Part shown: piece after piece, positions 639 through 16,645 of the stretch
Layout of the letters: each line of letters begins with the position of its first letter
Position numbering within the stretch: the first letter of the stretch is position 1
Source: an uncultured Spirochaetota bacterium
Lineage (GTDB): Bacteria > Spirochaetota > Spirochaetia > SZUA-6 > CAVTHK01
DNA length: 49,006 nucleotides
Assembly: GCA_963734495.1 (NCBI GenBank)
Contig: CAVTHK010000017.1
Span: forward strand, 1-49,006
Direction: 5' to 3'
Notes under the pieces: model-generated
The model's input: only the letters and a program-made list of their open reading frames with translations
The model's database searches: none
What the model was told of the DNA's origin: nothing
Made by a program: the position numbers and the translations under genes

Positions 639-716
639 ACGGGGCCGCCGATTCGCAATCGGCCAGCCCCGTCGATTCGCACGCTGCGCGCGGCCCGCCC
701 GCCGTATTCGGCGGGC
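639..716 (-). other. Intercistronic stem-loops after the solute-binding protein gene
   Basis: ACGGGGC(639-645)/GCCCCGT(666-672) enclosing GCCGATT/AATCGGC; second hairpin GCCCGCCG-TATT-CGGCGGGC (697-716). No U-tract. Confidence 0.6.
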
Positions 717-2362
717 TACCTCTTGCCGTAGCGGTCGAGGGCCGCCTGCTGGATCGCGACCAGGTCATCGATCCCGATGGATTTGAGCTGCGCGATGTAG
801 GAGTCGAACTCGCTGATGGGTTTCTGGCCCATGATGAACTTGGTCGTGGCTTCGTGCGTGAGGGTCCAGACGTCGTTCATCTTCGAAGCGAACTTCGAGG
901 CTTCGGCCGACGTCAGGGTGATCGGCGGCATCTGGCGCGCCGGGCCCTGGTCCCCGTTCCACAGCAGGGACGCCTCGCGCTGCACCGGCATCGACCACAT
1001 CCGGTACTGCCGGACCACCGCGTCGAGGATCTGCGCCTCGCCCGAGGCTCCCTGTGTGTACTGACCGAGCGCGACGTCGATCGAGTAGCCCTTGGGGTTC
1101 TTCAGGACCTCGTCGGTGAGCACCGGAACGCCGTTCTGCATCGTGTAGCTGACCCCTTCGACCCCGAAGTTCATGAGCAGGTGCCCGCCCTGCTTCTGGT
1201 CGTAGTGGTAGTCGAGCCACTTGGTCGCCTCTCTCGCGTGCTTGGTCTTCGTGGAGATGGCGGCGCCCTGCCCGGTGGTGATGGTATCGAACTGGAAGTT
1301 CCAGCCCTTCTCGCCCTTTGCGAGCGACGGGGCCGCGATGGGTTTGACGTAGAAGTTCGACTTCGGGTCCTTCTTGTACGCGGCGATGTAGCGGCCCATG
1401 GTGTCGCCGAGGCCGCCGAACCAGCAGGCGGCCTCATTGTTGGCAACTTTGCTGTCGTACGAGGTGTTCGTGGTGGTGGTGGCGAAGTCCTTGTCGATGA
1501 GACCTTCCTTGTACCACTGCGCCATGCGGGTGAGGTAGTCCTTGTAGGCGGGCTCGTACGGCCCGAACTTGGCCTTCCCGCCGGTCTGGAACCAGCCGTA
1601 GTCCATGCCGTACGCGTACAGGAAGATGCGCGGACCGCGGAGGTGCCTGACCTCGTACAGAACGATGGGGACGGTCTTGCCGTTGCCGGCGGGGTCCTTC
1701 TCCTTGAAGGTCTTGAGGAAGGTGTACCACTCGTCGAGGGTCTGGGGCGCGGTCAGGCCGAACTTGTCCATCCAGTCTCCGCGCGCCTGCCACCCGTAGG
1801 GCGCCAGGATGCTCTGGTTGTAGCGGACGATCGGGAAGGAGTAGAGCGTCCCGTCGTCGGTCACGACCATCTTCTTGATCGACGTCTCCTTGTCGAGGAA
1901 GGCCTTGATGTTCGGCGCCCATCGGGCGACCAGCGGGTTCAGGGGCTGGATGACCTTGTCGTCGATCATCTTCTGCGGCCCGCCGGGCTGGGTGGCCCAG
2001 TTGCGGTACATCATGTCGGGGAGGTCGCCGGAGGAGACCATGAGGTTGAACTTCTCGTTGTCCTGGCCGGCTGCGGGATGGATGAACTCGACCTTGATGC
2101 CGGTCCTCTTCTCCATCTCCTTGTATCCCGCGATCTTGGCGTAGTTGTCCGTGTGGACGCCGATCTTGGGAAAGTCCATCGCGATGAAATAGGTGAGCGT
2201 GACGGGCTCCTTCGCGATCGGGAGCGTCAGGTCCTCGGGCTTCGCCGGCAGGGCGCCTGCGTCGGCGGGCTGCGCGGCAGGACCTTCGGTCGTTCCGCCG
2301 GCCCATGACGCGACGGCAAGGCCCGCGAGAGCGAGCAGTATAAGACCAATCCTGTTGGGCAT
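716..2362 (-). CDS. Extracellular solute-binding protein (family 1, LplA-like)
   Basis: Signal peptide, then EMEKRTGIKVEF, SSGDLPD, PQTLDEWYTFLKTFKEKDP, NFGVEGVSY motifs; AGGAGG 7 nt upstream of the ATG at 2362. Confidence 0.9.
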   Translation of the reverse strand: MPNRIGLILLALAGLAVASWAGGTTEGPAAQPADAGALPAKPEDLTLPIAKEPVTLTYFIAMDFPKIGVHTDNYAKIAGYKEMEKRTGIKVEFIHPAAGQDNEKFNLMVSSGDLPDMMYRNWATQPGGPQKMIDDKVIQPLNPLVARWAPNIKAFLDKETSIKKMVVTDDGTLYSFPIVRYNQSILAPYGWQARGDWMDKFGLTAPQTLDEWYTFLKTFKEKDPAGNGKTVPIVLYEVRHLRGPRIFLYAYGMDYGWFQTGGKAKFGPYEPAYKDYLTRMAQWYKEGLIDKDFATTTTNTSYDSKVANNEAACWFGGLGDTMGRYIAAYKKDPKSNFYVKPIAAPSLAKGEKGWNFQFDTITTGQGAAISTKTKHAREATKWLDYHYDQKQGGHLLMNFGVEGVSYTMQNGVPVLTDEVLKNPKGYSIDVALGQYTQGASGEAQILDAVVRQYRMWSMPVQREASLLWNGDQGPARQMPPITLTSAEASKFASKMNDVWTLTHEATTKFIMGQKPISEFDSYIAQLKSIGIDDLVAIQQAALDRYGKR

Positions 2363-2557
2363 GTGCATTCCTCCTTGGAATGCGGCGGATTATCCGTCGT
2401 AGCCGATCCGGCTGTCAACGGAAGTGCGCACCCCGGGCCTTCGGGCGCGCTTTCCGCGGGCATGCGCTTCCATAGCGCCGCGTGGGACGATCCGCCCGCG
2501 GTCCCGGCCAACCCCGGCGCGGCCCGGAACGACCCGCCTGCGCGGGTCTACGCCGCC

Positions 2558-2609
2558 CCGACACGCCCCGACACGGCACTTGAAATTCCGACACGAGAAG
2601 TCATACATT
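2558..2609 (+). promoter_or_regulatory. Putative sigma70 promoter of ppa with three phased CCGACACG direct repeats
   Basis: TTGAAA (2580-2585) - 18 nt - TACATT (2604-2609); CCGACACG at 2558, 2568 and 2588. Confidence 0.5.
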
Positions 2610-2638
2610 TGAACGTAGTCCCCAAGTAGAGGCACAGC

Positions 2639-3229
2639 ATGAACCCGTGGCACGACTTCCCGGTCGACAGGATCGCGGGGGATGATTTCTACGCGATCAT
2701 CGAGATCCCCAAGGGCAGCAAGAAGAAGTACGAGCTCGACAAGGAGACCGGCCTGCTGCGGCTCGACCGGATCCTGTTCACAGCCACGCACTATCCGATG
2801 AATTACGGGTTCGTGCCCCGCACGCTGGCCCAGGACGGCGACCCGCTGGACGTCCTCGTGCTGTGCTCGGAGACCCTGGATCCCCTCACCGAGGTGCAGT
2901 GCTTTCCAGTCGGGGTGGTCAAGATGATCGACAACGAGGAGATCGACGAGAAGATCATTGCCATCCCTTTCAAGGACCCCTGGTTCTCGGGATTCCGCGA
3001 CATCCACACGCTGCCTCGCCACATCGTCCAGGAGGTCTCGCACTTCTTCGAGGTGTACAAGGCGCTCGAGCACTCGAGCACGTCCGCCCAGCAGACCGGC
3101 TCTCGCGACGAAGCCGTGGAGATCGTCGAGCGCTCCATCCAGCGGTACCTCGACGCCCACGCGCCGGGGGAGCCCGAGGGGAGCCCGGTCGCCGAGAGCA
3201 ACGGCGGCCGGCCCAAGCGGAGCCGGTGA
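2639..3229 (+). CDS. ppa: Inorganic pyrophosphatase, family I
   Basis: EIPKGSKKKYE, YPMNYGFVPRT, DGDPLDV signature, HFFEVYKALE. Confidence 0.95.
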   Translation: MNPWHDFPVDRIAGDDFYAIIEIPKGSKKKYELDKETGLLRLDRILFTATHYPMNYGFVPRTLAQDGDPLDVLVLCSETLDPLTEVQCFPVGVVKMIDNEEIDEKIIAIPFKDPWFSGFRDIHTLPRHIVQEVSHFFEVYKALEHSSTSAQQTGSRDEAVEIVERSIQRYLDAHAPGEPEGSPVAESNGGRPKRSR

Positions 3230-3366
3230 TCCGCGCCGATGCCGGGTCCCGGTCCGGCCGCGCCGGCCGGGCTGTCCCGGCCGTCAGACGGGGGCGTCGG
3301 GGCCGCGGCGGAGCTTCGTGATCAGCCCCTCGCGGCGGTATCTTGAACCTGGGAAGGGAGCGTTGC

Positions 3367-3747
3367 ATGGCCCACGTCCTCGTCGTCGATGGCGACCTTC
3401 TGGTGCTCAGCATGGTCGGCGACGTCCTCGAAGGCTCGGAGCACACGGTTTCGAAGGCCAACTCATGGAACGAGGCCATCAAGCTCCTGCGGGGACCGGA
3501 CCGGTTCGATCTCCTGATCACCGAGGTGGAGATCGGTGACGCGACGGGCGTCAAGCTCATCCAGCAGGCGCGCAGCCGGCAGCCGGCCCTGCAGGTCGTT
3601 GCCATCTCAGAGCTGGACGGCGCCGAACCCACCGCGGCGCTGCGTCAGTCCCTGCGCAGGCTCGGCGTCGCTCACCTGCTGAGAAAGCCGCTGAGCACCC
3701 AGGTGCTGGAGGAAGCGATCAGCGAAGTCCTCGGGGACAGGCGGTAG
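3367..3747 (+). CDS. Single-domain response-regulator receiver, atypical (phosphoacceptor Asp replaced by Glu)
   Basis: VLVVDGD...FDLLITEV...VVAIS...LRKP receiver pattern; AGGGAG RBS before the ATG at 3367. Confidence 0.8.
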   Translation: MAHVLVVDGDLLVLSMVGDVLEGSEHTVSKANSWNEAIKLLRGPDRFDLLITEVEIGDATGVKLIQQARSRQPALQVVAISELDGAEPTAALRQSLRRLGVAHLLRKPLSTQVLEEAISEVLGDRR

Positions 3748-3811
3748 CCCCCGCCTCCTCCGCCATTGCATCCTCGCCGCCGGCCCTCCCGAGAGTCCGA
3801 AGCGGCCTGGC

Positions 3812-6298
3812 CTACAGCCTTCCTCCCGCGGCGAGGTTTCCCGTGCCTTTCCACAGAGCTACTTCGTCGCCCGCGCTGCGGCCGAGCAGCCCGACGCGCA
3901 GCGCGCGATACACCGCCTGTTTGAGCAGGTCCTTCAGCAGCAGCCACGCCGCGGCCCAGGCCCAGACGGCCGCGGCCCACCTCCACCCGAGGGGCGCCAT
4001 CAGCACGCCGTAGACCGCGATCAGGGTCGCGGCGGCCTGCGCGGCGATCACCGCGGCTGCGAGGGCCGCCGAGGGGCGGGTCCCCCAGAGGGGGCCCTCG
4101 GTCCTGGCGGCGAAGATCGTGAGCTGCCCGGCGACGGAGAGCTCGAGGTAGACGAGCGTGCGAACCGTATCCGGGCTCACGTGGTAGAGATGCCCGGCGA
4201 TGAAGACGAGGGCGAGGGTCGACACGACGCCCGCGAGCCCGAGCGCCGCCGCGACGCCGAGGATCACGTTGAGGTCACCTCTCTGGGGCCGAGGCGCCTC
4301 GGGCGCGCGGTCCCGCGCCGCGGCCAGCATCACCGCTTCGTTCAGCAGCGCGAGCAGCGCGAGCGCCGCCGCGCTCACCGGGTAGAAATCGAGGCACAGG
4401 ATCGCGAGCGCGACGAACAGGAGGATGCGGACGGTTTCGGCGACCCGGTAGAGCGTGTAGCCCTCGATGCGGCTGATGATGGCGCGCGCCTCCCTGACGG
4501 CGGCGACGATGGGCGAGAGGCCCGGCCTCGTCAGCACGACCCTGGAGGCGACGCGGGCCGCATCGCTCGCTCCCGCGACTGAGATCCCGACGTCGGCCCT
4601 CTTGATGGCAGGCGCATCCGTGACCGTTTCGCCCGTGACGCCGACCGTGTGTCCGCGGCGACGCAGGATGTCGACGATCCGCGTCTTGTGCTCGGGCAGT
4701 GCGGCCGCGACGCCGTCCGCGTGCTCGACGGCTTCCTCGACACCGTCGCCCTCCCGCCCCTCCGGGAGCATGGCCGCGGCATCGAGGATCCTGTCGCCCA
4801 TGCCGAGGCGGCGTGCAATCTCGCGCGCGATGGGCGGCGGATCGCCGCACACCATCCTGACCTGGACGCCCATCGACCGGGCGGCGGCCAGCGCCTCGCG
4901 CGCTTCCTCGCGGGGCGGCTCGATCACCGGAAGAACCCCCAGGAAGCGCCATCGTCCGCTCTCGTCCGTCCGGGCGACTCCCAGCGAGCGGTAGCCGCCG
5001 GCTGCGAAGCGCCGGACGGCCCGCTCGACTTCGGGCTCCAGCGCCGGCCCGTTCTCGGCGAGCGCGAGAACCGCGTGCGGCGCCCCCCTCGAGACGCGGA
5101 AAGCGCCTGCCCCTCCCGGCGCGGCGACCGTCGCTTCGAGGCGGTGCCGCTCGCGGTCGAATGGGAGCACGCGCAGGACGCGGACCTCGCGGCCCCCGCG
5201 GGCCGCCCCCGACCGCTCGAGGAGAGCCGCGTCCACCGGGTCCCGCGCCCCCTCGTCGCAGGCGAGGGCCGCGGCTTCGAGCACGTCCTCCTGCGTTGCG
5301 CCGCCGACGGGCAGCGGCTCGCCGAGGCCGGCGCGGTCCTCCGTGAGCGTTCCCTGCTTGTCCGCCCACAGGACGTCGATGCCCGCGAGGTCGTCCACCG
5401 CGCCCGGCCGGGTGAGCACCGCCCCCAGCCCGGCCAGCCTGCGCGCGCCCGCCGCCATCGTGGCGGACAGAATCCGCGGCAGCGTGATCGGGATGGCGAC
5501 GACGCTGAGGACGAGGGCCAGCCGGGTGACCGGGAGCATCGGCTCACCCCGGAAGAGGGCCGCCGCGAGGAGCACGATCACGACGAGCAGAGCCGCGGCG
5601 GCCAGCGCGTCGCCCGCCCTCACCGCGGCCTTCTGCAGCCGGCCGGTCGTGTCCGTCTCGCTCACCAGCATCGCGGGGCGGCCGGCGCGGCAGTCGGCGC
5701 CGGTCGCGAACACGACGGCTTCGGTCTCCCCCTGCCGCACCACCGAGCCCGCGTAGACGGTGCTTCCGCTCGCCGCGTCGACCGGCGAGGACTGGCCTGT
5801 CAGGGCTGCCTGCTCCAGGCTCAGCGGGTCTCCCTCGAGCAGCCGCGCATCCGCGGGGACGACGTCGCCGAGCCGCAGGCTCACCACGTCGCCGGGCACC
5901 AGCTCGCGCGCGGGCACGACGCGCCACTCCCCGTCCCGGAGGACACGCGCCCGGACCGACGCCTGCGAGTCGAGGAAGCGGAACGCCGCCGATACCTGCC
6001 GCTGCACCCACAGGGCGGCGGCCGCGTTCGCGGCGAGAAGAGCGGCGATGACCGCCAGCTCGGCCCACTGCGCGGAGACGGCGCAGAGCACGGCGGCCAG
6101 CTCGATCGTCCAGGGGAGCGGCCCCCAGAAGCAGGCGATCACCCTGCCCGCGGCGCCCGCGGGGCGTGAGACGACCTCGTTGGGCCCCTTGCGCCGCAGG
6201 CGCCTCGCGGCCTCGGCAGCGCTCAGTCCGTCGCGGCTGGTATCAAGCTGCTGCAGGAGCTGCCGCATCGGTATGGAGAGGATTCCGCGTTCGTTCAT
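3812..6298 (-). CDS. P-type ATPase of the plasma-membrane H+-ATPase (P3A) type with degenerate catalytic motifs
   Basis: GLSAAEA...GPN, FWGPLPW, LVPGDVV, GDVVPADARL, IPITLP, PEHK, YRVAETVR, FAART identify the family; motifs read DKQGT, TGQS, RGAP, EPPR, CGD, GETVTD, LLNE. Start chosen by the GAGGT RBS (alternative GTG at 6313). Confidence 0.85.
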   Translation of the reverse strand: MNERGILSIPMRQLLQQLDTSRDGLSAAEAARRLRRKGPNEVVSRPAGAAGRVIACFWGPLPWTIELAAVLCAVSAQWAELAVIAALLAANAAAALWVQRQVSAAFRFLDSQASVRARVLRDGEWRVVPARELVPGDVVSLRLGDVVPADARLLEGDPLSLEQAALTGQSSPVDAASGSTVYAGSVVRQGETEAVVFATGADCRAGRPAMLVSETDTTGRLQKAAVRAGDALAAAALLVVIVLLAAALFRGEPMLPVTRLALVLSVVAIPITLPRILSATMAAGARRLAGLGAVLTRPGAVDDLAGIDVLWADKQGTLTEDRAGLGEPLPVGGATQEDVLEAAALACDEGARDPVDAALLERSGAARGGREVRVLRVLPFDRERHRLEATVAAPGGAGAFRVSRGAPHAVLALAENGPALEPEVERAVRRFAAGGYRSLGVARTDESGRWRFLGVLPVIEPPREEAREALAAARSMGVQVRMVCGDPPPIAREIARRLGMGDRILDAAAMLPEGREGDGVEEAVEHADGVAAALPEHKTRIVDILRRRGHTVGVTGETVTDAPAIKRADVGISVAGASDAARVASRVVLTRPGLSPIVAAVREARAIISRIEGYTLYRVAETVRILLFVALAILCLDFYPVSAAALALLALLNEAVMLAAARDRAPEAPRPQRGDLNVILGVAAALGLAGVVSTLALVFIAGHLYHVSPDTVRTLVYLELSVAGQLTIFAARTEGPLWGTRPSAALAAAVIAAQAAATLIAVYGVLMAPLGWRWAAAVWAWAAAWLLLKDLLKQAVYRALRVGLLGRSAGDEVALWKGTGNLAAGGRL

Positions 6299-6390
6299 CA
6301 CAGCCGACCTCACTCGCGCTTCGAAGCCGCGCGGCGGCTCGGGCGGCGGCCCGCCGGCGTGATCGCCGGCCCCGCCGACCCTTTCGGTCG

Positions 6391-6433
6391 AGTGTAGGCA
6401 GGCGCGCTTTCGCGCGACTTACCGCAGGCTTAA
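6391..6433 (-). promoter_or_regulatory. Candidate OmpR-family direct-repeat box and -10 element upstream of the P-type ATPase
   Basis: Minus strand TTAAG-N6-GTAAG (6433-6418, 11-bp period), then TACACT (6396-6391). Confidence 0.4.
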
Positions 6434-6453
6434 CAGTTTGAAAGGCTGGGCGC

Positions 6454-7860
6454 TCAGAGCCGCTCGCGGGCCGCCGGGATGCCGGCCGGCAGCCGCACGA
6501 TGAACGTCGACCCCCGCCCGAGCGTGCTGCGCACGTCGACGGAGCCGCCGTGAGCGGCGACCACGGCCTTGACGAGGTTCAGCCCGAGGCCCAGGCCGGG
6601 CTCGACACGGCTGTGGCGGCCGCGGAACAGACGGTCCCAGATGCGGCCGATCTCGTCGGGCGCGATTCCGATGCCGGTGTCCTCGACTTCGATCACGATC
6701 TCCCCGTCCTCGGGACGGGCTCGGACCTCGATCGAGCCGCCGCCGCGGGGCGTGTATTTCACGGCATTGTCGAGAAGATTCGCCATCACCTGGCGGACCC
6801 GCGATGCGTCGACGACCGCCGGAAGAGTCGGGGGCATGATCACGCGGATGGCGATGCCCTTTTCGTCCGCGACGTACCCGTACAGCTCCGCCAGGTCGGC
6901 GATGATCGGCGCCAGGTCCTGCTCCTTCGACTCGAGGCGCATCGCCCCGGTCTCGGCCTCGGAGATGTCCATGAGCTTGCGGATAAAGGCCAGGAGCTCC
7001 CCGCTCTGCTCGATGCACTCGGCCAGGCCGAGGCGCCACCGCTGAGGCTCCTGCGGCTCCTGCAGCGCGACTTCGGCTGCGGCCCGCAGGCGCGTGAGCG
7101 GCGTGCGCAGGTCGTGCGCCACGTTGTCCAGCGCGCCGCGCATGCCCCTGACGAGCGACTCGATCTTCTCGAGCATCGTATTGAAGAGCCCGACGAGCTG
7201 GCCGAGCTCGTCGTTCACGCGCGGGGCGGGGATCCTGGCCTCCAGGCTCCCCGTCTCGATGATCCGGCGTGTGGTCTGGATGAGGCGCCGCACCGGGCTC
7301 AGGGCCCCCATGGCGAAGTAGAGGCCGCCGGCGAAGCTCACGATCAGGGTGGGGACGCTGACCATCAGGAACGCCCTGCGGAACCGCAGGACAATCCTGT
7401 CCCGGACCGCCGCGTCGACCGCGACCTGGAGGACGGTGCCGTCGTCGAGCACCCGCGTGGCGACCAGCAGCCCGCCGTTTCCGCGCGGGAGCGCGAGCCT
7501 GCGGAACGGCGTCGTATCCGGCGTGGCGTCGTGCTCGAGGGCGGCCTGCGCGGGGCTGCGCCAGAGATCGGAGGCGAGCACGGAGAGCGTGCGGTTGCCC
7601 GCGTCGGCGAACCGCACAAAGAAGTGCCAGTCGCCGACGAGGTCGGTCTCCGTGGAGATCCCGCTCCTCACCAACTCGATGCCGCCGGTCTTGTACAGCG
7701 CCTCGACTTCGAGCAGCCGCGCCTGCAGGGTGTCGCTCTCCTCCCGGGCGACCGAGGCGTCCAGGATCAGGTAGGTCGCGGCGAAGAGGGCCAGCGTTCC
7801 CGCCACGAAGATGGCGGAGAAGAACGCCGTCACGCGGAGGTCAAGGGACCTTGAGCGCAT
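6454..7860 (-). CDS. Sensor histidine kinase (HAMP-HisKA-HATPase, CusS/QseC-like)
   Basis: Two TM segments, HAMP (DELGQL..LFNTML), H-box AHDLRTPL, N-box NLLDNAVKY, G-boxes DTGIGI and GLGLGL. Confidence 0.92.
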   Translation of the reverse strand: MRSRSLDLRVTAFFSAIFVAGTLALFAATYLILDASVAREESDTLQARLLEVEALYKTGGIELVRSGISTETDLVGDWHFFVRFADAGNRTLSVLASDLWRSPAQAALEHDATPDTTPFRRLALPRGNGGLLVATRVLDDGTVLQVAVDAAVRDRIVLRFRRAFLMVSVPTLIVSFAGGLYFAMGALSPVRRLIQTTRRIIETGSLEARIPAPRVNDELGQLVGLFNTMLEKIESLVRGMRGALDNVAHDLRTPLTRLRAAAEVALQEPQEPQRWRLGLAECIEQSGELLAFIRKLMDISEAETGAMRLESKEQDLAPIIADLAELYGYVADEKGIAIRVIMPPTLPAVVDASRVRQVMANLLDNAVKYTPRGGGSIEVRARPEDGEIVIEVEDTGIGIAPDEIGRIWDRLFRGRHSRVEPGLGLGLNLVKAVVAAHGGSVDVRSTLGRGSTFIVRLPAGIPAARERL

Positions 7861-8515
7861 ATCCGACACCGCGCACCGTCTGCAGGAGCTTCGGCTCGAA
7901 GTCCTGGTCGACCTTGCGCCGCAGCCGATGGATCAGCACGTCCACGACGCCGCTCTGCGGGTCGAAGTGGTAGTCCCACACGTGCTCGAGGATCATCGTC
8001 TTGGAGACGACGTGCGGCGAGGCGCGCATCAGGTATTCGAGGAGGGCGAACTCCTTGGGCTGGAGGTCGAGGCCGCGCCCCGCGCGCTTGACTTCGCGCG
8101 TGAGCAGGTCCATCGAGAGGTCGCCCACGTCGAGCCGCATCGCCGCGGGCGCGCGGCCGGCCCTGCGCATCAGGGCCTCGAGGCGCACGAGCAGCTCGGA
8201 GAACGAGAAGGGCTTGGTCAGGTAGTCGTCGCCGCCGGAGCGGAAGCCGCGGACCTTGTCGTCGACGGACTGCAGCGCGCTCAGGATGAGCACGGGAGTG
8301 GAGTTGCCGCGGCCGCGCAGCTGCCCGATCATGGCGATGCCGTCCATCCCGGGGAGCAGGATGTCCACGATCATCGCGTCGTACGCGTTCACGCGCGCCA
8401 TCGACAGCCCGTCCTCGCCGTTGTCGACCGGGTCGACGGCGAACCCCGCCCGCCGCAGACCCTCCCCCACGAAGCTGGCGATCTTCTTGTCGTCCTCGAC
8501 CAGGAGCACCCGCAT
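7841..8515 (-). CDS. OmpR/PhoB-family response regulator (CusR-like)
   Basis: LLVEDD, IVDILLPGMDG with intact Asp, DYLTKPF, winged-helix C-terminus LQTVRGVGY. Confidence 0.95.
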   Translation of the reverse strand: MRVLLVEDDKKIASFVGEGLRRAGFAVDPVDNGEDGLSMARVNAYDAMIVDILLPGMDGIAMIGQLRGRGNSTPVLILSALQSVDDKVRGFRSGGDDYLTKPFSFSELLVRLEALMRRAGRAPAAMRLDVGDLSMDLLTREVKRAGRGLDLQPKEFALLEYLMRASPHVVSKTMILEHVWDYHFDPQSGVVDVLIHRLRRKVDQDFEPKLLQTVRGVGYALKVP

Positions 8516-8559
8516 CCCCGCGGTCCTCCGTCACCGGGGCGCCGTCCGCAGCGCCCGCC

Positions 8560-8577
8560 CGGCTTAAGCTTAAGCCG
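8560..8577. promoter_or_regulatory. Perfect 18-bp palindrome upstream of the response regulator (candidate operator)
   Basis: CGGCTTAAGCTTAAGCCG is its own reverse complement; AT-rich core in a GC-rich context, about 45 nt upstream of the regulator start. Confidence 0.5.
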
Positions 8578-8633
8578 TCGCGAGATGCGCGGGCAACCCC
8601 GGGCGCTCCTGTCGCGGCGCGGTACGCTCCTCC

Positions 8634-9698
8634 TTACCGCCCGGGGCCCGCCGCGCCGGCGGCGGCGACCGCACGGCGCAGCTGGCCGAAGCTGATCAGG
8701 GTCCCCTTGTCCTCGTCCCAGAGGTTCAGGAAGACCGACTTGAGGCTCCGCCCGATGGTGAGACAGTCGGGCAGCTGCAGCTCCGGGATCGCGTCGAGGC
8801 ATCGCTGCAGGTGGTAGTTGGGAATGCGCGGCCTGAGGTGGTGCACGTGGTGCAGCCCGATGTTGCCGCTCACCCACTGCAGGACTTTCGGCAGCCGGTA
8901 GTAGGAGCTGCCCTGGAGCGCGGCCTCGATGGAGCCCCACTGCTCGTGCCTCGCCCAGTAGGAGGGGTCGAACTGGTGCTGCACGTAGAAGAGCCAGATC
9001 CCGCCCATGCCGCCGATGATCATGATCGGCACCTGGATCTCGAGGTAGGTGAGCCAGCCGAACGAGAAGCCGATCGCGGCCGCGAACAGGAGCACGCCCG
9101 CGTTGGTGAGCATGACGCTGCGGACCTGCTTCGCACCGACCCCTTTCTTGGGCACCCGGTTCGCGATGAAGAACGTACCGATGGGTCCCAGGAGGAACAT
9201 GACGAACGGGTTGCGGAACAGCCTGTAGGCGAGGCGCGTCCGCAGGGGGGCGGCGCGATACTCGGCGACGGTCATCGTCCAGACGTCTCCGATGCCGCGC
9301 CTGTCCAGGTCCCCGGCGGTCGAGTGGTGGACGCCGTGCGTGTAGCGGAACCCCGCATAGGGGGTGAACGTGAGGATCCCCAGGACGGTGCCCAGCGCCG
9401 TGTTCGCCCTGGAAGAGCGGAAGAAAGAGCCGTGGCAGCAGTCGTGAAAGAAGATGAACACGCGGACGAGAAAGGCGGCGGCCACGGCGGCCAGCGCGAG
9501 GGTCACCCAGTAGGGCAGGCCGCGGCGGACGGTCGCGATCATCGCCACCCAGAGCGCGGCATATGGCAGGAGAGTGTTCAACAGCTGTCCCAGCGCTCTC
9601 TTCCGGTCCGCGGCTTCGAACGGCTTCATGGCGGCGAGCCATGGCGGCGTGCCAGGCTTTGCCGCGCCGGCCTTCACCTTGTTTTCCTGCTCGATCAT
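8634..9698 (-). CDS. Membrane fatty acid desaturase (Bacillus Des-like)
   Basis: His boxes HDCCH, HGVHH and HHVHH; WLFYVQHQF; PRIPNYHL. Confidence 0.93.
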   Translation of the reverse strand: MIEQENKVKAGAAKPGTPPWLAAMKPFEAADRKRALGQLLNTLLPYAALWVAMIATVRRGLPYWVTLALAAVAAAFLVRVFIFFHDCCHGSFFRSSRANTALGTVLGILTFTPYAGFRYTHGVHHSTAGDLDRRGIGDVWTMTVAEYRAAPLRTRLAYRLFRNPFVMFLLGPIGTFFIANRVPKKGVGAKQVRSVMLTNAGVLLFAAAIGFSFGWLTYLEIQVPIMIIGGMGGIWLFYVQHQFDPSYWARHEQWGSIEAALQGSSYYRLPKVLQWVSGNIGLHHVHHLRPRIPNYHLQRCLDAIPELQLPDCLTIGRSLKSVFLNLWDEDKGTLISFGQLRRAVAAAGAAGPGR

Positions 9699-9794
9699 GC
9701 TGGTGCCCCCTCTGCGTGTGCGCTCGTCCGGCCCGATCGGCCGACAGCGGGATCACCGCCCGCGTCGCCGAGCACTATCATGACCAGTTTTCTA

Positions 9795-9852
9795 AGGCTT
9801 TGGTTGCACGCAGTGATCAGGCTTTGACTCCACCGACGGCCGTCATTAAGCT
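9795..9852 (+). promoter_or_regulatory. Putative sigma70 promoter of the nar operon with an 8-bp direct repeat
   Basis: TTGACT (9824-9829) - 17 nt - TAAGCT (9847-9852); AGGCTTTG at 9795 and 9819. Confidence 0.5.
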
Positions 9853-10011
9853 GGTGCAATAAACCCTCTGGGAGCAACCAGTGACTGAGTCGCCCGGAGC
9901 CAGCCGGACGAACGCGAATCCCGCTTCGACTGTCCGCTCGCGAACCCGACCCGATCCACTCGTTCCTTACCTCGAAAAGGAAATTCCGATCCCAGCGCGA
10001 GAGAGGTCGCG

Positions 10012-13000
10012 ATGAGCCATTTCACGGACACGCTCCTGTTCTTCAGAAAGAGGGCCGGCTCGTTCTCCGATGGGCACGGCGTGGTGACCACCGAGAGCCG
10101 CGCCTGGGAGGAGGGCTACCGCAACCGCTGGCAGCACGACAAGGTCGTGCGCTCCACGCACGGGGTCAACTGCACCGGAGGGTGCAGCTGGAAGATCTAC
10201 GTCAAGGGCGGCATCGTCACCTGGGAGACCCAGCAGACCGACTACCCGCGCACGCGGCCGGAGATGCCCGACCACGAGCCGCGCGGGTGCTCGCGCGGCG
10301 CGAGCTACTCCTGGTACCTCTACAGCGGCAACCGCCTCAAGTACCCGATGGTGCGCGGGCGGCTGCTGCGGATGTGGCGCGAGGCGAGAGCGAGCCGGCC
10401 GCCCGTCGATGCGTGGGCGGGAATCGTCGAGGACGCCGAGCGGCGGCGCTCCTATCAGTCGGTGCGCGGCCTGGGCGGCTTCGTCCGCTCGACCTGGGAA
10501 GAGGTCAACGAGATCATCGCCGCGGCCAACGTGTACACGGTGAGGAAGTACGGGCCGGACCGGATCTGCGGGTTCTCGCCGATCCCCGCGATGTCGATGA
10601 TCTCCCACGCGTCCGGGATGCGCTACCTCTCTCTCATCGGCGGCGCCGCGCTCTCGTTCTACGACTGGTACTGCGACCTGCCCCCGAGCTCGCCGCAGAC
10701 CTGGGGCGAGCAGACCGACGTGCCCGAGAGCGCCGACTGGTACAACGCCATGTTCCTGATCCTCTGGGGCTCCAACGTGCCCCAGACCCGCACGCCCGAT
10801 GCTCACTTCTACACCGAGGCCCGCTACAAGGGGACGCAGAGCGTCGTGGTCTCCCCCGACTACAGCGAGGCCTCGAAGTTCGCCGACATCTGGCTGCACC
10901 CCAAGGCCGGGACCGACTCGGCCCTCGCGATGGCGATGGGCCACGTGATCCTCACCGAGTTCCATGTCAGGCGGCGAAGCGAGTACTTCACCGACTACTG
11001 CCGCAGGTACAGCGACCTCCCGTTCCTCGTGCGCCTCGCCCGCAGGGGCAAGGGGGACTCGTTCGTCCCCGAACGCTTCCTTCGGGCGAGCGACTTCGCG
11101 GATTCCCTCGGCGAGCGCAACAACCCCGACTGGAAGACCGTGGCCTGGGACGAGAGTGTCCGGCCGCGTCGTCGCGCCGCAAGGCTCGATCGGGTTCCGC
11201 TGGGGCGAAGAGGGGAAATGGAACCTCGAGGAGAAGGAAGGCAGGACCGGCGCGACGGTGAAGCTCTCGTTGACGACGCTCGACCGTCCGCACGAGGTGC
11301 TTCCGGTGGCGTTCCCGTACTTCGGCAGCCGGGGCAGCGACCATTTCGCCGGGACAGATCACCCCGAGGTCCTGGTGCGCAGCGTGCCCGCGGCAAAGGT
11401 CGCCACGCGCGAGGGCGAGGTTCTTGTCGCCACCGTTTTCGACCTGCTGGCGGCCAATTACGGTGTCGACCGCGGGCTCGGCGGGCAGTGGGCCGCCGCG
11501 ACCTACGACGACGACGTCCCGTACACGCCGGCGTGGCAGGAGCGGATCACCGGCGTCGATCGCCGCCTCGTGATCGCGACGGCGCGGCAGTTCGCGGAGA
11601 CGGCCGAGAAGACCAAAGGCAAGTCGATGGTCATCCTCGGCGCCGGCATCAACCACTGGTTCAACAGCGACATGGCCTACCGCGGGATCATCAACATGCT
11701 GGTCCTCTGCGGTTGCGTCGGGAAGCCGGGCGGAGGCTGGTCGCACTACGTCGGCCAGGAAAAGGTGCGGCCGCAGACCGGATGGGCGACGCTCGCGTTC
11801 GCGACCGACTGGTACCGGCCGCCGCGTCATATGAACGGCACGTCCTTCTTCTACTTCCACGCCGACCAGTGGCGCTACGAGACCGTGACCCCCGCCGAGA
11901 TCCTCTCGCCGACCGCCCCCGACGGCGACTGGGGCGGGAGCCTCGTCGACTACAACGTGCGCTCCGTTCGCATGGGGTGGCTGCCGGCCGCGCCGCAGCT
12001 CGCCCGCAACCCGCTGGAGGTGGCCCGGGCGGCCGAAGCAGCGGGCGAAGAGCCGGCGGCTTACGTGACGAAACGCCTCAAGAGCGGGGAGCTGCGCTTC
12101 GCGTTCGAGGACCCCGACGACCCGGCGAACTTCCCGCGCAACATGTTCGTCTGGCGCTCGAACATCCTGGGCTCGAGCGGCAAGGGGCACGAGTACTTCC
12201 TCAAGCATTTTCTCGGGACGCAGAGCAGCATCCTCGGCGAGGACCTCGGCGCCGCGGGCCGCGAACAGCACCGCGAGGTGGTCTGGCGTGACGAGGCTCC
12301 GCAGGGCAAGCTGGACCTTGTGGTGACGCTGGACTTCCGCATGTCCACCACCTGCCTGTACTCCGACATCGTGCTGCCCACCGCGACCTGGTACGAGAAG
12401 AACGACCTGAACACCACGGACATGCACACCTTTATCCACCCGCTCTCGGCCGCCGTCGACCCGGTGTGGGAGAGCCGGACGGACTGGGCGATCTTCCGCG
12501 GGATCGCGGCAAAGTTCTCCGAGGTGGCGCACGGAGTGCTCGGCGTCGAAAAGGACATCGTGCTCACGCCCATCATGCACGACAGCCCGGCGGAGCTGGG
12601 CCAGGCGCTTGACGTCAAGGACTGGAAGAAGGGCGAGTGCGAGCCGGTCCCGGGAAAGACCACGCAGGCGATGACCGTGGTTTCCCGCGACTATCCCAAC
12701 GTCGGGAGGATGTTCACGGCCCTCGGGCCGCTGATGAGCAAGGTCGGAAACGGCGGCAAGGGCATCGCATGGAAGACCGAGGAGGAGGTGGAGCATCTCA
12801 AGCGGCTGAACGGCGCCGTCACGGAGCCAGGAGTCACGCAGGGGCTCCCGCGCATAGTGAGCGAAGTCGACGCGTGCGAGACCGTGATGGCGCTTGCGCC
12901 CGAGACCAACGGCGCGGTGGCGGTTCGCGCCTGGAAGTCGCTTTCCGTGCGTACCGGCCGGGAGCACGCGCACCTCGCGCTCGGCCGGGAGGAGGAGCGC

Positions 13001-13771
13001 GCGCGGTTCACCGACATCGTGGCGCAGCCGCGCCGCACGATCACCTCGCCCATCTGGAGCGGCATCGACTCGGAGGAGACCACCTACAACGCCGGCTATA
13101 CCAACGTGCACGAGCTGATCCCCTGGCGGACCGTCACCGGACGCCAGGAGCTCTACCAGGACCACCTCTGGATGCGCGCCTTTGGCGAGGCGCTGTGCGT
13201 GTACAAGCCCCCCGTGGACACCAGGACGATCCGGCCCGCGGAGAAGATCCTGGACAACGGCCAGCCTCACGTGGTGCTGAACTTCCTCACCCCTCACCAG
13301 AAGTGGGGCATTCACAGCACCTACTCCGACAACCTGATGATGCTCACGCTGTCGCGGGGAGGGCCCATCGTCTGGATCAGCGAGGCGGACGCCAGGCGCG
13401 CCTCGCTCGTGGACAATGACTGGATCGAGGTCTTCAACTGCAACGGCTCGCTGGTCGCCCGCGCCGTCGTGAGCCAGCGCGTGAAAGAGGGGACGGCGAT
13501 GATGTACCACGCCCAGGAGAAGATCGTGAACACCCCCGGCAGCGCGATCACCGGCAACAGGGGCGGCATCCACAACTCCGTGACGCGGACGCTCGTCAAA
13601 CCGACCCACATGATCGGCGGGTACGCGCAGCTCGCCTACGGGTTGAACTACTACGGGACGGTGGGCTCCAACCGGGACGAGTTCGTCATCGTGCGCAAGC
13701 TCGAAAAGGTGGACTGGATGGACGAGCCGGCCGCCGGGGGCAGGCCGCCCGTGAAAGGAGCACACGCATGA
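10012..13771 (+). CDS. narG: Respiratory nitrate reductase alpha subunit (one frameshift near 11155)
   Basis: RSTHGVNCTGGC FS0 motif, SFYDWYCDLP, GGWSHYVGQEK, TPHQKWGIHSTY, YYGTVGSNRDE; the N-terminal part lies in ORF 10012.., the rest in ORF ..13771. Confidence 0.95.
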
Positions 13772-15267
13772 AGGTGCGCGCCCAGATCGGCATGGTGATG
13801 AACCTGGACAAGTGCATCGGGTGCCACACCTGCTCGGTCACCTGCAAAAACGTGTGGACCTCGCGCGAGGGCATGGAGTACGCCTGGTTCAACAACGTCG
13901 AGACCAAGCCCGGCATCGGCTACCCCAAGGACTGGGAGAACCAGCGGCGCTGGTACGGCGGCTGGCAGCGCGTAAGCAACGGCGCGATCAAGCCGACCCA
14001 GGGCGGCAAGTGGCGACTGCTCGCCAAGGTCTTCGGCAACCCCCACATGCCGGAGATCGACGACTACTACGAGCCGTTCACCTATGAGTACGAGCACCTG
14101 CAGGCGGCCCCCGAATCGCGCACGACCCCGGTCGCCAGGCCGGTGAGCGTGATCACAGGCGAGCGCATGGAGAAGATCGAATGGGGGCCCAACTGGGAGG
14201 AGATCCTGGGAGGGGAGTTCTCCAAGCGGAGCAGGGACCGCAACTTCGAGCAGGTGCAGAAGGAGATCTACGGGCAGTTCGAGAACACCTTTATGATGTA
14301 CCTGCCCCGGCTGTGCGAGCACTGCCTGAACCCGTCCTGCGTCGCCTCGTGCCCCACGGGCGCGATCTACAAGCGCGAAGAGGACGGCATCGTCCTGATC
14401 GACCAGGACAAGTGCCGCGGCTGGCGCATGTGCGTGAGCGGCTGCCCCTACAAGAAGGTCTACTACAACTGGAAGACCGGCAAATCGGAGAAGTGCATCT
14501 TCTGCTATCCCCGCATCGAGGCCGGTCTGCCGACGGTGTGCTCGGAGACCTGCGTCGGCCGCATCCGTTACCTCGGCGTGCTCCTTTACGACGCCGACCG
14601 GATCAAGGAGGCCTCGAGCGCTGAGAGCCTCGAGGACCTCTACGAGGCGCAGCTCTCCGTGTTCCTCGATCCCTCGGACCCCGACGTCGAGCGGCAGGCG
14701 CTCGCCGACGGCGTGCCGTCCGCCTGGATCGAGGCGGCGCGCAATTCGCCGGTCTACAAGATGGCCATGGACTGGCGCGTCGCCTTCCCGCTGCACCCGG
14801 AGTACCGGACGCTCCCGATGGTGTGGTACGTGCCGCCGCTGTCCCCGGTGCAGGCCGCGGTGGCCAACGGCTTCGTCGACCGGTCGGACATCATCCCCGA
14901 CGTCGAGAGCCTCAGGATCCCCGTCCGCTACCTGGCGAACCTGCTCACCGGGGGCAGGGAGGAGCCGGTCGTGCTCGCGCTCAGGCGGATGCTCGCGACG
15001 CGCTCCTACATGAGGCGCAGGAACATCGAAGGCGTTCTCGACCACGCGGTGCCCGCGAAAGTCGGCATGAGCGCCGAAAGCATGGAAGAGATGTTCGTCC
15101 TCATGGCCATCGCCAACTACGAGGACCGTTACGTCATCCCCACGGCCCACCGCGAGCTGACCGAGGACGCCTACGCGCTGCGGGGCGGCTGCGGCTTCAG
15201 CTTCGGGGGAGGGTGCGCCTCGGGCGGGCTGACGGGCGGCGCGCCGGCCCGGGAGGGCGAGACGTGA
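13768..15267 (+). CDS. narH: Respiratory nitrate reductase beta subunit
   Basis: NLDKCIGCHTCSVTCKNVW, CEHCLNPSC, CRGWRMC, CIFCYPR Fe-S motifs; ATGA overlap with narG. Confidence 0.97.
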   Translation: MKVRAQIGMVMNLDKCIGCHTCSVTCKNVWTSREGMEYAWFNNVETKPGIGYPKDWENQRRWYGGWQRVSNGAIKPTQGGKWRLLAKVFGNPHMPEIDDYYEPFTYEYEHLQAAPESRTTPVARPVSVITGERMEKIEWGPNWEEILGGEFSKRSRDRNFEQVQKEIYGQFENTFMMYLPRLCEHCLNPSCVASCPTGAIYKREEDGIVLIDQDKCRGWRMCVSGCPYKKVYYNWKTGKSEKCIFCYPRIEAGLPTVCSETCVGRIRYLGVLLYDADRIKEASSAESLEDLYEAQLSVFLDPSDPDVERQALADGVPSAWIEAARNSPVYKMAMDWRVAFPLHPEYRTLPMVWYVPPLSPVQAAVANGFVDRSDIIPDVESLRIPVRYLANLLTGGREEPVVLALRRMLATRSYMRRRNIEGVLDHAVPAKVGMSAESMEEMFVLMAIANYEDRYVIPTAHRELTEDAYALRGGCGFSFGGGCASGGLTGGAPAREGET

Positions 15268-15935
15268 CCGCGACGCTGCGCGCGCTCTCCGCGCTTCTCA
15301 CGTATCCCACGGAGGAGCTCAGGGCGTCGGCGTCCGAGATGCGGGAGGCCCTCGACCGCGAGGCGCTGCTCGCTGAGGACGAGCGGGCGGCGATCGCTCC
15401 CCTCATCTCGGAGCTCGCCAACCGCGATCTCTACGAGCTGCAGGAACGCTACGTCGACCTCTTCGACCGCGCGCGCCATTTCTCCCTTTATCTGTTCGAG
15501 CACCTCTACGGGGAGTCGCGCGACCGGGGAGGGATGATGGTCGAGCTCGTCGAGCGCTACCGGGCGCACGGGCTGGAGATCGCAGCGAGGGAGCTGCCGG
15601 ACTATCTCCCGCTGTACCTGGAGTACCTCTCGCTGCTGCCGCTGGAGCAGGCCCGGCGCGAGCTCGGCGAGCCGGTCGCCGTCATTTCCGCCCTGGCGCG
15701 CAGGCTCGAGAAGCGCGGGAGCCCGTATGCGCCCGTGCTCGCGGCGCTCGAGAAGCTTGCGGCGGCCGAGCCTGATCCGCGCGACCTCGGCGACCTCGAG
15801 CGGGAGGCCGATCTCGACGGCAACGACCCGGCCGCTCTCGACCGGCAGTGGCAGGAGGACCCCGTGGTGCTTGCGGCGGCGCTTGAGCAGCGCAAGCTGG
15901 CGCGATCCCACCGAACGAAAGGGGGCAAGCCGTGA
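15264..15935 (+). CDS. narJ: Nitrate reductase molybdenum cofactor assembly chaperone
   Basis: LSALLTYP, YVDLFDR, LFEHLYGESRDRG, ELPDYLPLYLEY; GTGA overlap with narH. Confidence 0.93.
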   Translation: MTATLRALSALLTYPTEELRASASEMREALDREALLAEDERAAIAPLISELANRDLYELQERYVDLFDRARHFSLYLFEHLYGESRDRGGMMVELVERYRAHGLEIAARELPDYLPLYLEYLSLLPLEQARRELGEPVAVISALARRLEKRGSPYAPVLAALEKLAAAEPDPRDLGDLEREADLDGNDPAALDRQWQEDPVVLAAALEQRKLARSHRTKGGKP

Positions 15936-16645
15936 TCGCCTTTCTCGACAGCCTCGTGTTCGGCTATTACCCGTACGTGGCGCTCTCGATCTTCATCGGC
16001 GGGGGAATCATCCGCTTCAACCGCGGCCAGTACTCCTGGCGCAGCGGCTCGAGCCAGCTCCTGCGCAGGCGCCAGCTCGTGGTCGGAAGCTCCCTCTTCC
16101 ACTTCGGCGTGCTCGTCGTGCTGGCGGGCCATTTCGTCGGCTTCCTCACGCCCGAGGTGGTCCTCAAGGTGCTCGGCGTGAGCGTCACGGCCCACCAGCT
16201 CCTGGCGATCGTGGTCGGCGGGACCGCGGGCATCGTCGCCTGGGTGGGGCTCACGATGCTCGTCCATCGCCGGCTCTTCGATGCGCGCATCCGCCGGACC
16301 AGCGGCGTCATGGACATCGTGGCCGTGCTCCTGGTGTGGGTGCAGCTCACCTTCGGACTCGCCACGGTGCCGATCTCCGCGCAGCACCTCGACGGCGCGG
16401 TCTTCCTCAGGCTCGTCGCCTACGTGCAGTCCATCGTCTACTTCCAGCCCGACCCGGTGTCGCTCCTCTCGGGGGTGCTGTGGGTGTACAAGGTGCACAT
16501 ATTCCTCGGCTTCACGTTCTTCCTGATCTGGCCGCTCAGCAGGCTGGTGCACATCTGGAGCGCCCCCGTCTGGTACCTGGGCCGCATGTACCAGGTGGTT
16601 CGAAGGCGGGTGCCCGCGCGCGCGAGGCGCGGCATGCCCGCATGA
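15932..16645 (+). CDS. narI: Respiratory nitrate reductase gamma subunit (cytochrome b)
   Basis: YYPYVAL, QYSWRSGSSQLL, heme His ligands in LFHFG, GHF, VHIFLG and SRLVHIWS. Confidence 0.95.
   Translation: MIAFLDSLVFGYYPYVALSIFIGGGIIRFNRGQYSWRSGSSQLLRRRQLVVGSSLFHFGVLVVLAGHFVGFLTPEVVLKVLGVSVTAHQLLAIVVGGTAGIVAWVGLTMLVHRRLFDARIRRTSGVMDIVAVLLVWVQLTFGLATVPISAQHLDGAVFLRLVAYVQSIVYFQPDPVSLLSGVLWVYKVHIFLGFTFFLIWPLSRLVHIWSAPVWYLGRMYQVVRRRVPARARRGMPA

Follow-up and report, generated by a model that had tools for sequence, protein, structure and literature searches.

A divergent P3A-type ATPase homologue with substituted catalytic motifs behind a two-component system in an uncultured Spirochaetota bacterium

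Solved structures of P3A-type ATPases include those of the plant and fungal H+-ATPases AHA2 (5ksd) and Pma1 (7vh5, 7nxf and 9ugb). For the prokaryotic P3A pumps, the excerpted text of a 2023 review gives the transport function as undetermined (PMC10654040). P-type modules also occur in a signaling context, since excerpts from a group of papers on alveolates describe P4-ATPase-like domains fused to guanylate cyclases, and one abstract title in that group calls the ATPase activity essential (PMC7858053, PMC6592433, PMC13466520). Here we describe a P3A-type ATPase homologue from an uncultured Spirochaetota bacterium, encoded in a 49,006-nucleotide stretch of DNA (contig CAVTHK010000017.1 of assembly GCA_963734495.1) that we refer to throughout as the window. 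The protein is full-length and keeps the phospho-acceptor Asp, and seven of its motifs carry substitutions. Constraint on it is strongly flattened, and it may be a catalytically compromised pump. The source genome is an 83%-complete assembly of 18 contigs with 4.7% contamination, and the contig's membership is only as sound as the binning.

The family nearest to the window protein is that of the canonical bacterial P3A ATPases, exemplified by P0044 of Geobacter metallireducens and by the orthologues in G025 and G043, two genomes from other families of the same order (44-50% identity, 93-97% of the length). The G025 and G043 pumps match the same TIGR01647 model and occupy the same place behind an OmpR-type response regulator and a HAMP-HisKA kinase. 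Unlike them, the window gene has no adjacent HtrA gene and encodes a protein far richer in Gly, Ala, Arg and Pro. The alveolate proteins, as excerpted (PMC7858053, PMC6592433, PMC13466520), are eukaryotic, of the P4 lipid-flippase class and fused to a cyclase, whereas the window protein has neither a fusion nor a signaling output domain.

Intact frame and substituted motifs

The ATPase gene reads without interruption for 828 amino acids from an ATG at position 6298. This is the protein on record as P0002, also of 828 amino acids, and it bears out the intact frame of about that length described in a first-pass annotation of this DNA. An in-frame GTG at 6313 would add 5 residues (open reading frame 3812..6313, 833 amino acids). 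The G+C contents of the three codon positions (GC1, GC2 and GC3) are 0.78, 0.54 and 0.91, and codon periodicity is normal. Spurious open reading frames of 506 and 364 amino acids overlap the gene in other frames, at 4649-6169 (+) and 4275-5369 (-), so an open frame alone means little at 75% G+C.

The protein matches TIGR01647 (plasma-membrane proton-efflux P-type ATPase, P3A) over the full model (positions 1-755 of 755), scoring 710.4 bits where the cut-off is 615.5; the runner-up family, TIGR01524, reaches 243.8 bits. Its Pfam domains are PF00690 (Cation_ATPase_N), PF00122 (E1-E2_ATPase) and PF00702 (HAD hydrolase). An AlphaFold2 model built from a 54-row alignment, and driven by the canonical pumps in that alignment, has the 10-helix fold with a predicted local distance difference test (pLDDT) score of 86 and a predicted TM score (pTM) of 0.84, residues 807-828 being disordered. 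The model superposes on AHA2 with a TM score of 0.87 and a root-mean-square deviation of 3.5 Å, which indicates compatibility with the fold and not activity. To this extent the view of the first-pass annotation that the fold is maintained is upheld.

AHA2 is the best solved relative both by sequence (E=2.6e-149, residues 13-800) and by predicted fold. The window protein has the domain order and the 10 helices of the plant and fungal H+-ATPases, and retains the equivalents of Asn106, Arg655 and the phospho-Asp of AHA2. It differs from the plant and fungal enzymes in its low identity (36%) and in the absence of their long regulatory termini, and from AHA2 in the alteration of TGES, DKTGT, KGAP, DPPR, TGD and GDGVND and in the Glu at the Asp684 position.

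The first-pass annotation had located seven motif changes, and script mapping returned exactly the same position for each (Table 1). The alignment to AHA2 pairs them with TGES, DKTGT, KGAP, DPPR, TGD, GDGVND and LND. In a MAFFT alignment of the window protein with its other best homologues, the canonical residue stands at every altered motif column in 118 of 118 proteins, which puts the departures of the window protein far outside what chance would give. A set of 149 diverse representatives of 50% clusters, which come from the 150 P3A matches listed of 59,360, has DKTGT in 136, TGES in 130, TGD in 142 and GDGVND in 126. At the DKTGT, TGES, GDGxND and TGD positions we find DKQGT, TGQS, GETVTDAP and CGD in the window protein; TGES is present in P0003, its one close relative. 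The Thr-to-Gln change in the phosphorylation loop takes at least two base changes, as had been pointed out. Further differences lie outside these motifs. The second adenine-pocket lysine site is occupied by His385 (Arg in P0003), and the window protein departs from the canonical consensus in having an Arg after the M4 proline and in lacking both glutamates at the cytoplasmic end of helix 2, which are replaced by Val and Gln; P0003 keeps the first of this pair and has Arg at the second.

The HAD core is built from four motifs: a nucleophilic Asp (I), a Ser or Thr (II), a Lys (III) and an acidic pair (IV). In the window protein motif I (Asp313) and motif III (Lys538) are present, motif II has become Cys484, and motif IV reads Glu557...Asp561; Gly316, Thr317 and Asp486 are also retained. 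The description of nearly every catalytic motif as rewritten is thus too strong, because the phospho-Asp and both phosphate-site lysines survive.

What the replacements would do to the reaction cycle we infer from characterized relatives. Mutagenesis of Thr353, Thr625, Asp703 and Asn706 in SERCA, which we take to be the equivalents of residues altered here, severely impairs phosphorylation. Acyl-phosphate formation and ion transport by the window protein may have been lost or slowed. The TGES glutamate (Glu183) activates the water that hydrolyses the aspartyl phosphate, according to the excerpted text of PMC11468904, so Gln169 in the window protein should block or greatly slow dephosphorylation. 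The first-pass annotation also counted LLNE as loss of the proton site. This claim is not supported, because in AHA2, as an excerpt of PMC5387105 has it, D684E alone among the Asp684 mutants retains proton transport and rescues a yeast pma1 knock-out. The rest of the proton path is in place, with Asn91 and Arg624 kept as the equivalents of Asn106 and Arg655, and Glu654 at the Asp684 position.

Table 1. Positions of the ATPase gene, its motifs and its neighbors in the window, and of canonical clusters at other loci
Feature	Position	Strand	Remarks
Divergent P3A-type ATPase homologue, coding sequence	3812..6298	minus	Assigned by TIGR01647 score and AHA2 alignment; stop codon 3812-3814
M2 Asn91	6026..6028	minus	Equivalent of AHA2 Asn106, retained; from alignment
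Actuator loop TGQS (canonical TGES)	5789..5800	minus	Gln169 in place of the Glu activating the hydrolytic water; P0003 has TGES
M4 Arg275	5474..5476	minus	Directly after the conserved Pro; mostly Thr in canonical relatives; also in P0003
Phosphorylation loop DKQGT (canonical DKTGT)	5348..5362	minus	Asp313 (5360-5362) and Lys314 retained; Thr315 to Gln
Nucleotide-domain RGAP (canonical KGAP)	5078..5089	minus	Lys404 to Arg
EPPR (canonical DPPR)	4910..4921	minus	Asp460 to Glu
CGD (canonical TGD, HAD motif II)	4841..4849	minus	Thr484 to Cys; SGD in some metagenome contigs
PEHK	4685..4696	minus	Catalytic HAD motif-III Lys538 (4685-4687) retained
Hinge GETVTD (canonical GDGVND)	4616..4633	minus	Asp557 to Glu, Gly558 to Thr, Asn560 to Thr; final Asp561 (4616-4618) retained
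M5 Arg624	4427..4429	minus	Equivalent of AHA2 Arg655 (built-in counter-ion), retained; from alignment
M6 LLNE (canonical LLND)	4337..4348	minus	Glu654 (4337-4339) at the proton-acceptor position; Asn653 retained
Histidine kinase (HAMP, HisKA, HATPase_c)	6454..7869	minus	Upstream, co-directional; 140-base gap to ATPase gene
OmpR-type response regulator	7841..8515	minus	Upstream, co-directional; overlaps kinase gene by 29 bases
Canonical regulator-kinase-HtrA-P3A cluster, L043 (G025:C33)	6603-14424		
Canonical regulator-kinase-HtrA-P3A cluster, L045 (G043:C26)	7973-16165		
Canonical HtrA-P3A-HtrA, L044 (G077:C39)	664-6352		

Age and pattern of the divergence

P0003 is a protein of 829 amino acids from another assembly (NCBI source, contig of at most 9,274 bases) and the sole close relative of P0002 among 5.8 billion protein clusters, with 85% identity; the best match after it is only 50% identical. 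A homologue with the same set of motifs, for which the first-pass annotation had recommended a search, is therefore at hand in all but one particular: P0003 has DKQGT, RGAP, EPPR, CGD, GETVTD and LLNE, six of the seven changes, and a canonical TGES. The shared six are thus older than the split between the two lineages and are not errors of this assembly. The change from TGES to TGQS is private to the window, and one base suffices for it (GAG to CAG).

Logan contigs 94-98% identical to the gene occur in wetland and soil metagenomes from at least three studies and in one metatranscriptome library (for example 498 bases with 15 differences, 480 with 13 and 304 with 8). Among the 40 listed of 217 Logan differences, none lies in the DKQGT, RGAP, EPPR, CGD or GETVTD codons, and none lies in the Gln169 codon, over which a single RNA-library contig runs (218 bases, 6 differences). 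SGD replaces CGD in three contigs of run X2 that derive from more distant relatives (4848 C>G). The metatranscriptome contigs cover 25 of 30 gene bins at a likeness of at least 80%, with long pieces at 94-97%, and may include DNA carry-over. Wider scans brought up nothing closer: 12 loci, the best 45% identical, for P0003-like genes in genome contigs; no identity above 49% in 92 genomes of the same order; and two unrelated loci of 25-26% identity in metagenome contigs searched with two N-terminal peptide patterns. In G001, which is 99% complete and the only other genome of the genus, we found neither an ATPase orthologue or close P3A homologue nor a module of the window's type.

The stem leading to P0002 and P0003 is long, at 1.09 changes per site by FastTree and 1.4 by IQ-TREE C20, against median end branches of 0.19 and 0.33. 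The neighboring genes provide a yardstick for this rate. Between the window and G025 or G043 the response regulators are 65% or 62% identical (70% between G025 and G043) and the histidine kinases 44% or 39% (46%), and for the ATPases the corresponding values are 47% or 44% (66%). Arithmetic on these identities and on tree paths gives an ATPase lineage about 2.5 times faster than its kinase and regulator neighbors predict.

The changes do not spare the active site. The 118 relatives have 287 positions with a conservation of at least 97%. The window protein departs from them at 91 of these positions, and at 83 the change is found in both P0002 and P0003. The stem changes fall on 7 of 23 core motif residues (30%; TGES, DKTGT, the K of KGAP, DPPR, TGD, the K of PEHK and GDGxND) and on 76 of the 264 other invariant sites (29%). 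In P0139, a canonical protein that is equally diverged (83 of the 287 sites changed), 0 of 6 motifs are flagged. Since core residues of the window lineage change as often as other invariant sites, unlike those of P0139, catalysis-specific protection has gone. The proposal that the pump cycle may be lost or altered gains from this comparison: the canonical cycle is no longer preserved by selection.

Constraint has also been strongly flattened since P0002 and P0003 split, as is seen from a control of 122 canonical pairs of 80-90% identity. P0002 and P0003 differ at 9.4% of the sites that are at least 97% conserved, where the control pairs differ at 0.6%; at sites 80-97% conserved the figures are 12% and 7.6%, at sites 50-80% conserved 18.8% and 26%, and at sites less than 50% conserved 22.1% and 50%. 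Composition has moved as well. Gly, Ala, Arg and Pro make up 43.6% of the window protein, against a mean of 30.4% and a maximum of 35.7% in the 118 relatives and 28.7% in a canonical paralogue encoded on contig C1 of the same genome, and there are 8 lysines against 33 in that paralogue. This compositional shift exceeds that of the window's own kinase and regulator. Taken with the lack of an orthologue in G001, the flattened rates and the compositional drift look more like relaxed selection than new constraint.

The lineage does not look neutral, to judge by the open frames, the polymorphism, the GC3 of 0.91 and the regional conservation. P0002 and P0003 are both open, with a single 1-codon indel between them, and there is no frameshift relative to canonical pumps over the whole stem. 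Only 2.1% of single substitutions in the gene create stops; under neutrality the 122 amino-acid differences, or about 175 substitutions, would still have brought 3.7 stops (P=0.025, indels not counted). The ratio of non-synonymous to synonymous polymorphism (pN/pS) is roughly 0.36, from the 12 synonymous and 11 non-synonymous differences that were usable among the 40 listed; 10 had been dropped as belonging to a diverged contig (4814-4852) and 7 as lying in a high-depth conserved interval (5855-5881) that attracts other ATPases. Between P0002 and P0003 the best-kept regions are M5-M6 (94%), the phosphorylation loop (93%) and M7-M10 (91%), and the least-kept are M1-M2 (76%), the A domain (81%) and the N domain (82%). 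Of 22 consensus-Lys sites, 9 have become Arg in both copies and 4 stay Lys in both, including Lys314 and Lys538.

Gene neighborhood and other degenerate homologues

The window kinase has one match at E<=1e-60 in each of G025 and G043, and in both genomes this is the kinase of a co-directional cluster with a canonical P3A pump, ordered regulator-kinase-HtrA-P3A-HtrA in G025 and regulator-kinase-HtrA-HtrA-P3A in G043. In position, the window gene thus corresponds to a canonical pump gene with a linked two-component system, and the kinase and cluster matches give no obvious sign of a recent import or tandem duplication. Genome G077 has HtrA-P3A-HtrA behind an IS21 fragment, and the P3A gene of G012 has no such cluster context. 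An HtrA gene lies within 1.5 kb of the pump in 5 of 13 genomes of the same order, against 0 of 6 loci outside it. The arrangement suggests that the canonical P3A pump of these clusters belongs to an envelope- or acid-stress regulon. A promoter and terminator scan of 3300-8700 returned no promoter-like site and one terminator-like site, inside the kinase gene; these counts are no more than in shuffled sequence, and the scan is thus uninformative on operon structure.

The window's genome (G000) holds a second regulator-kinase-HtrA module, at G000:C10:55518-58395, which is orthologous to that on G001:C49 (kinase 68%, HtrA 85%). The kinase match in this C10 module has in-frame TGA stops and the protease match runs over two frames, which looks like assembly indel noise. 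Synteny of the window's module with G001 was considered and rejected, as the G001 genes are the orthologues of the C10 module and not of the window's; G001 hence shows only that a module of the window's type was not found there.

A search of the genome for a canonical P3A paralogue, as recommended in the first-pass annotation, was successful. The C1 gene (G000:C1:362369-364585; L001 1414-3855) belongs to another subclade, has DKTGT, TGES and GDGVND, and is 33% identical to P0002. Its G+C is 62.4% with a GC3 of 0.83, and the 2-kb bins of the window range over 62-75%. The genome may have gained this paralogue later, rendering the window's pump redundant.

Several other genes share the window. 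Tail-to-tail with the ATPase gene and 65 bases from it, at 3343-3747 (+), lies a gene for a receiver-only protein (Pfam 47.9 bits). In alignment with OmpR-type receivers it reads ITEVE opposite their IVDIL, with Glu in the place of the phospho-acceptor Asp, and its Ser and Lys positions are retained; by its sequence the product may be a pseudo-receiver. The genes at 10964-15267 (+), for a molybdopterin oxidoreductase (935 amino acids) followed by a 4Fe-4S subunit with a nitrate-reductase-beta C-terminal domain, are a respiratory DMSO-reductase-family pair. An ABC-transporter permease fragment (2-682, -) and a solute-binding protein (716-2368, -) stand at the start of the window. G001 has more than 25 matches to the initial 540 bases, at 65-71% identity, indicating a large paralogous permease family rather than a mobile repeat.

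Other clear degenerate P3A homologues among the 149 representatives are P0130, P0149, P0205 and P0241, with milder cases in P0242 and P0258. Like the window protein, the first four are full-length with several catalytic motifs degraded, and each sits on a long branch. P0149, labeled at source as a Rhodospirillum rubrum proton pump, has TGDR, DQSGT, TPE and GATGED, and P0130 has TGQW, NKTGT and GSAVTD. The phospho-Asp is lost in three of these proteins (NKTGT, NKSGT and NKSST), whereas the window protein keeps it. The TGES Glu has become Gln in three independent degenerate lineages, P0002, P0130 and P0205. No close kin of the other degenerate proteins was seen to share their defects. In the IQ-TREE C20 tree P0130 joins the canonical pumps of actinobacteria and P0149 a different canonical group, each with an SH-aLRT support of 99. 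A shared ancient degenerate clade was rejected: FastTree had joined P0130, P0139, P0149 and the window pair (98), but C20 and the nearest canonical kin separated them, and we attribute the FastTree grouping to long-branch attraction. Nor do these proteins share derived positions more often than degenerate proteins from other subclades do. By these trees, degenerate P3A homologues arise repeatedly, as independent offshoots of canonical groups. Among the papers listed in literature searches, judged by titles and the starts of abstracts, we found nothing on degenerate bacterial P3A pumps or on the regulator-kinase-HtrA-P3A cluster.

Readings of the divergent lineage

We favor, with about even confidence, the reading that the window protein would be a catalytically compromised pump, hypomorphic or near-dead, under relaxed yet weakly purifying selection. 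The ancestor would have been a canonical bacterial P3A pump behind an envelope-stress-type two-component system with HtrA proteases. Selection on the catalytic cycle would then have weakened in the window's lineage, with the protein presumably still made as a full-length, 10-helix P-type fold. Asp313, Lys314, Lys538, Asp486, Asp561 and the Asn91/Glu654/Arg624 proton path are kept, and drift would have taken the residues around Mg2+ and the gamma-phosphate (Gln315, Cys484, Glu557, Thr558 and Thr560), the adenine-pocket lysines and Glu460. Nucleotide binding and perhaps slow phosphorylation of Asp313 could persist with turnover slow or absent; in the window copy, with its Gln169, any phosphoenzyme would be long-lived. 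Pumping could be provided by the canonical P3A gene on contig C1.

Several observations weigh against this reading. The replacements are mostly conservative (three Asp-to-Glu and two Lys-to-Arg). Gln169 is read from this assembly alone, which has frame breaks in other genes, and the pN/pS of 0.36 is a rough value from 23 selected differences in mixed short contigs, with a 95% range of about 0.16-0.8. The attachment point within the P3A tree shifts from one tree to another and has weak support (82). Instead of relaxed selection, the better-kept phosphorylation loop and M5-M6 could point to new constraint, and an unusual but working active site is possible, especially in P0003, which keeps TGES, and given that D684E functions in AHA2 in the excerpt cited (PMC5387105). 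If so, the protein would still pump protons or some other small cation as a P-type ATPase with a co-adapted active site, in which Glu for Asp, Arg for Lys, Cys (via Ser) for Thr and Gln for Thr would together preserve phosphoryl transfer, with altered kinetics or metal preference. Such a pump is unlikely on balance. It would account for the retention of Gly316, Thr317 and the other catalytic residues listed above, and of the proton path with its tolerated Glu (PMC5387105, in excerpt). It would also fit the 93% identity of the phosphorylation loop between the copies, the metagenomic SGD variant, which suggests a functional path from Thr through Ser to Cys, and the persistence of Lys at both phosphate sites whilst 9 others became Arg (hypergeometric chance about 0.03). 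Against it stand the invariance of Thr315, Asp557, Gly558, Asn560 and Thr484 in 118 of 118 relatives, and nearly so in the 149 representatives, the change of catalytic residues at the same rate as other invariant sites, and the flattened site-rate profile. The impaired phosphorylation of the SERCA Thr353, Asp703, Asn706 and Thr625 mutants, presumed equivalents, speaks against it too. In the window copy, moreover, Gln169 would remove the general base for dephosphorylation, on the excerpted account of its role (PMC11468904).

The first-pass annotation had ventured a regulatory subunit, sensor or passive channel, and none of our evidence points to such a role. The alveolate fusions exemplify a signaling role of the kind it had in mind. 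A repurposed pseudo-pump, whose fold and perhaps long-lived phospho-Asp or nucleotide-bound state would sense or modulate the adjacent two-component system, is weighed here as an improbable option. A frame open in two lineages, the position directly behind an intact kinase-regulator pair across a 140-base gap (a single gene context, n=1), the isosteric Glu-to-Gln change in three independent degenerate lineages and the 94-97% identical contigs in a metatranscriptome library would all suit it. It has no new conserved feature to show, however: derived states at formerly invariant sites are identical between the copies in 71 of 83 cases (85.5%), against a protein average of 85.3%. The lineage is also tiny, consisting of metagenome fragments and two proteins in 5.8 billion clusters, and was not found in G001; and since canonical pumps already had the kinase linkage, no new function is needed to explain it. 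More specific still, and to our minds very improbable, is the idea that Asp313 might serve as a slow, long-lived, receiver-like phospho-switch by way of Gln315, Cys484, Glu557 and Thr560 (with Gln169 in the window), in a protein that no longer pumps and would report on or gate the Asn91/Glu654/Arg624 path or the adjacent envelope-stress kinase. Receiver and HAD domains have a common active-site geometry. At the opposite extreme, the gene could be dead yet undisrupted, having lost its function (at the latest with Glu169 to Gln) and remained open since stops are rare at 75% G+C. The rarity of stop-creating substitutions, the long spurious frames that overlap it, the lack of a G001 orthologue, the canonical paralogue on C1, the flattened constraint and the drift toward Gly, Ala, Arg and Pro would all agree with this. 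We regard it as doubtful, given a stem of 1.1-1.4 changes per site without a frameshift, the single in-frame indel between the copies, the 3.7 stops expected under neutrality (P=0.025) with many frameshifts besides, differences that are 2.3 times rarer at the most conserved than at variable sites, the rough pN/pS of 0.36 and the intact codon periodicity. Death of the gene is disfavored for the history of the lineage; a very recent death of the window's allele alone is possible.

For the family, the window lineage amounts to a natural experiment in which the proton path and phospho-Asp have been kept and the shell that positions Mg2+ and phosphate has been replaced. Were the phospho-switch reading true, it would be a bacterial P3A 'transceptor' evolved from a pump under two-component control. 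The regulator-kinase-HtrA-P3A cluster, found in several families of the order, is a by-product of perhaps wider use. That degenerate P3A homologues are labeled as proton pumps in databases calls for caution where acid tolerance is inferred from annotation. Study of this lineage would reveal the extent to which the invariant P-type active site can be dispensed with, or the course that the decay of a pump takes.

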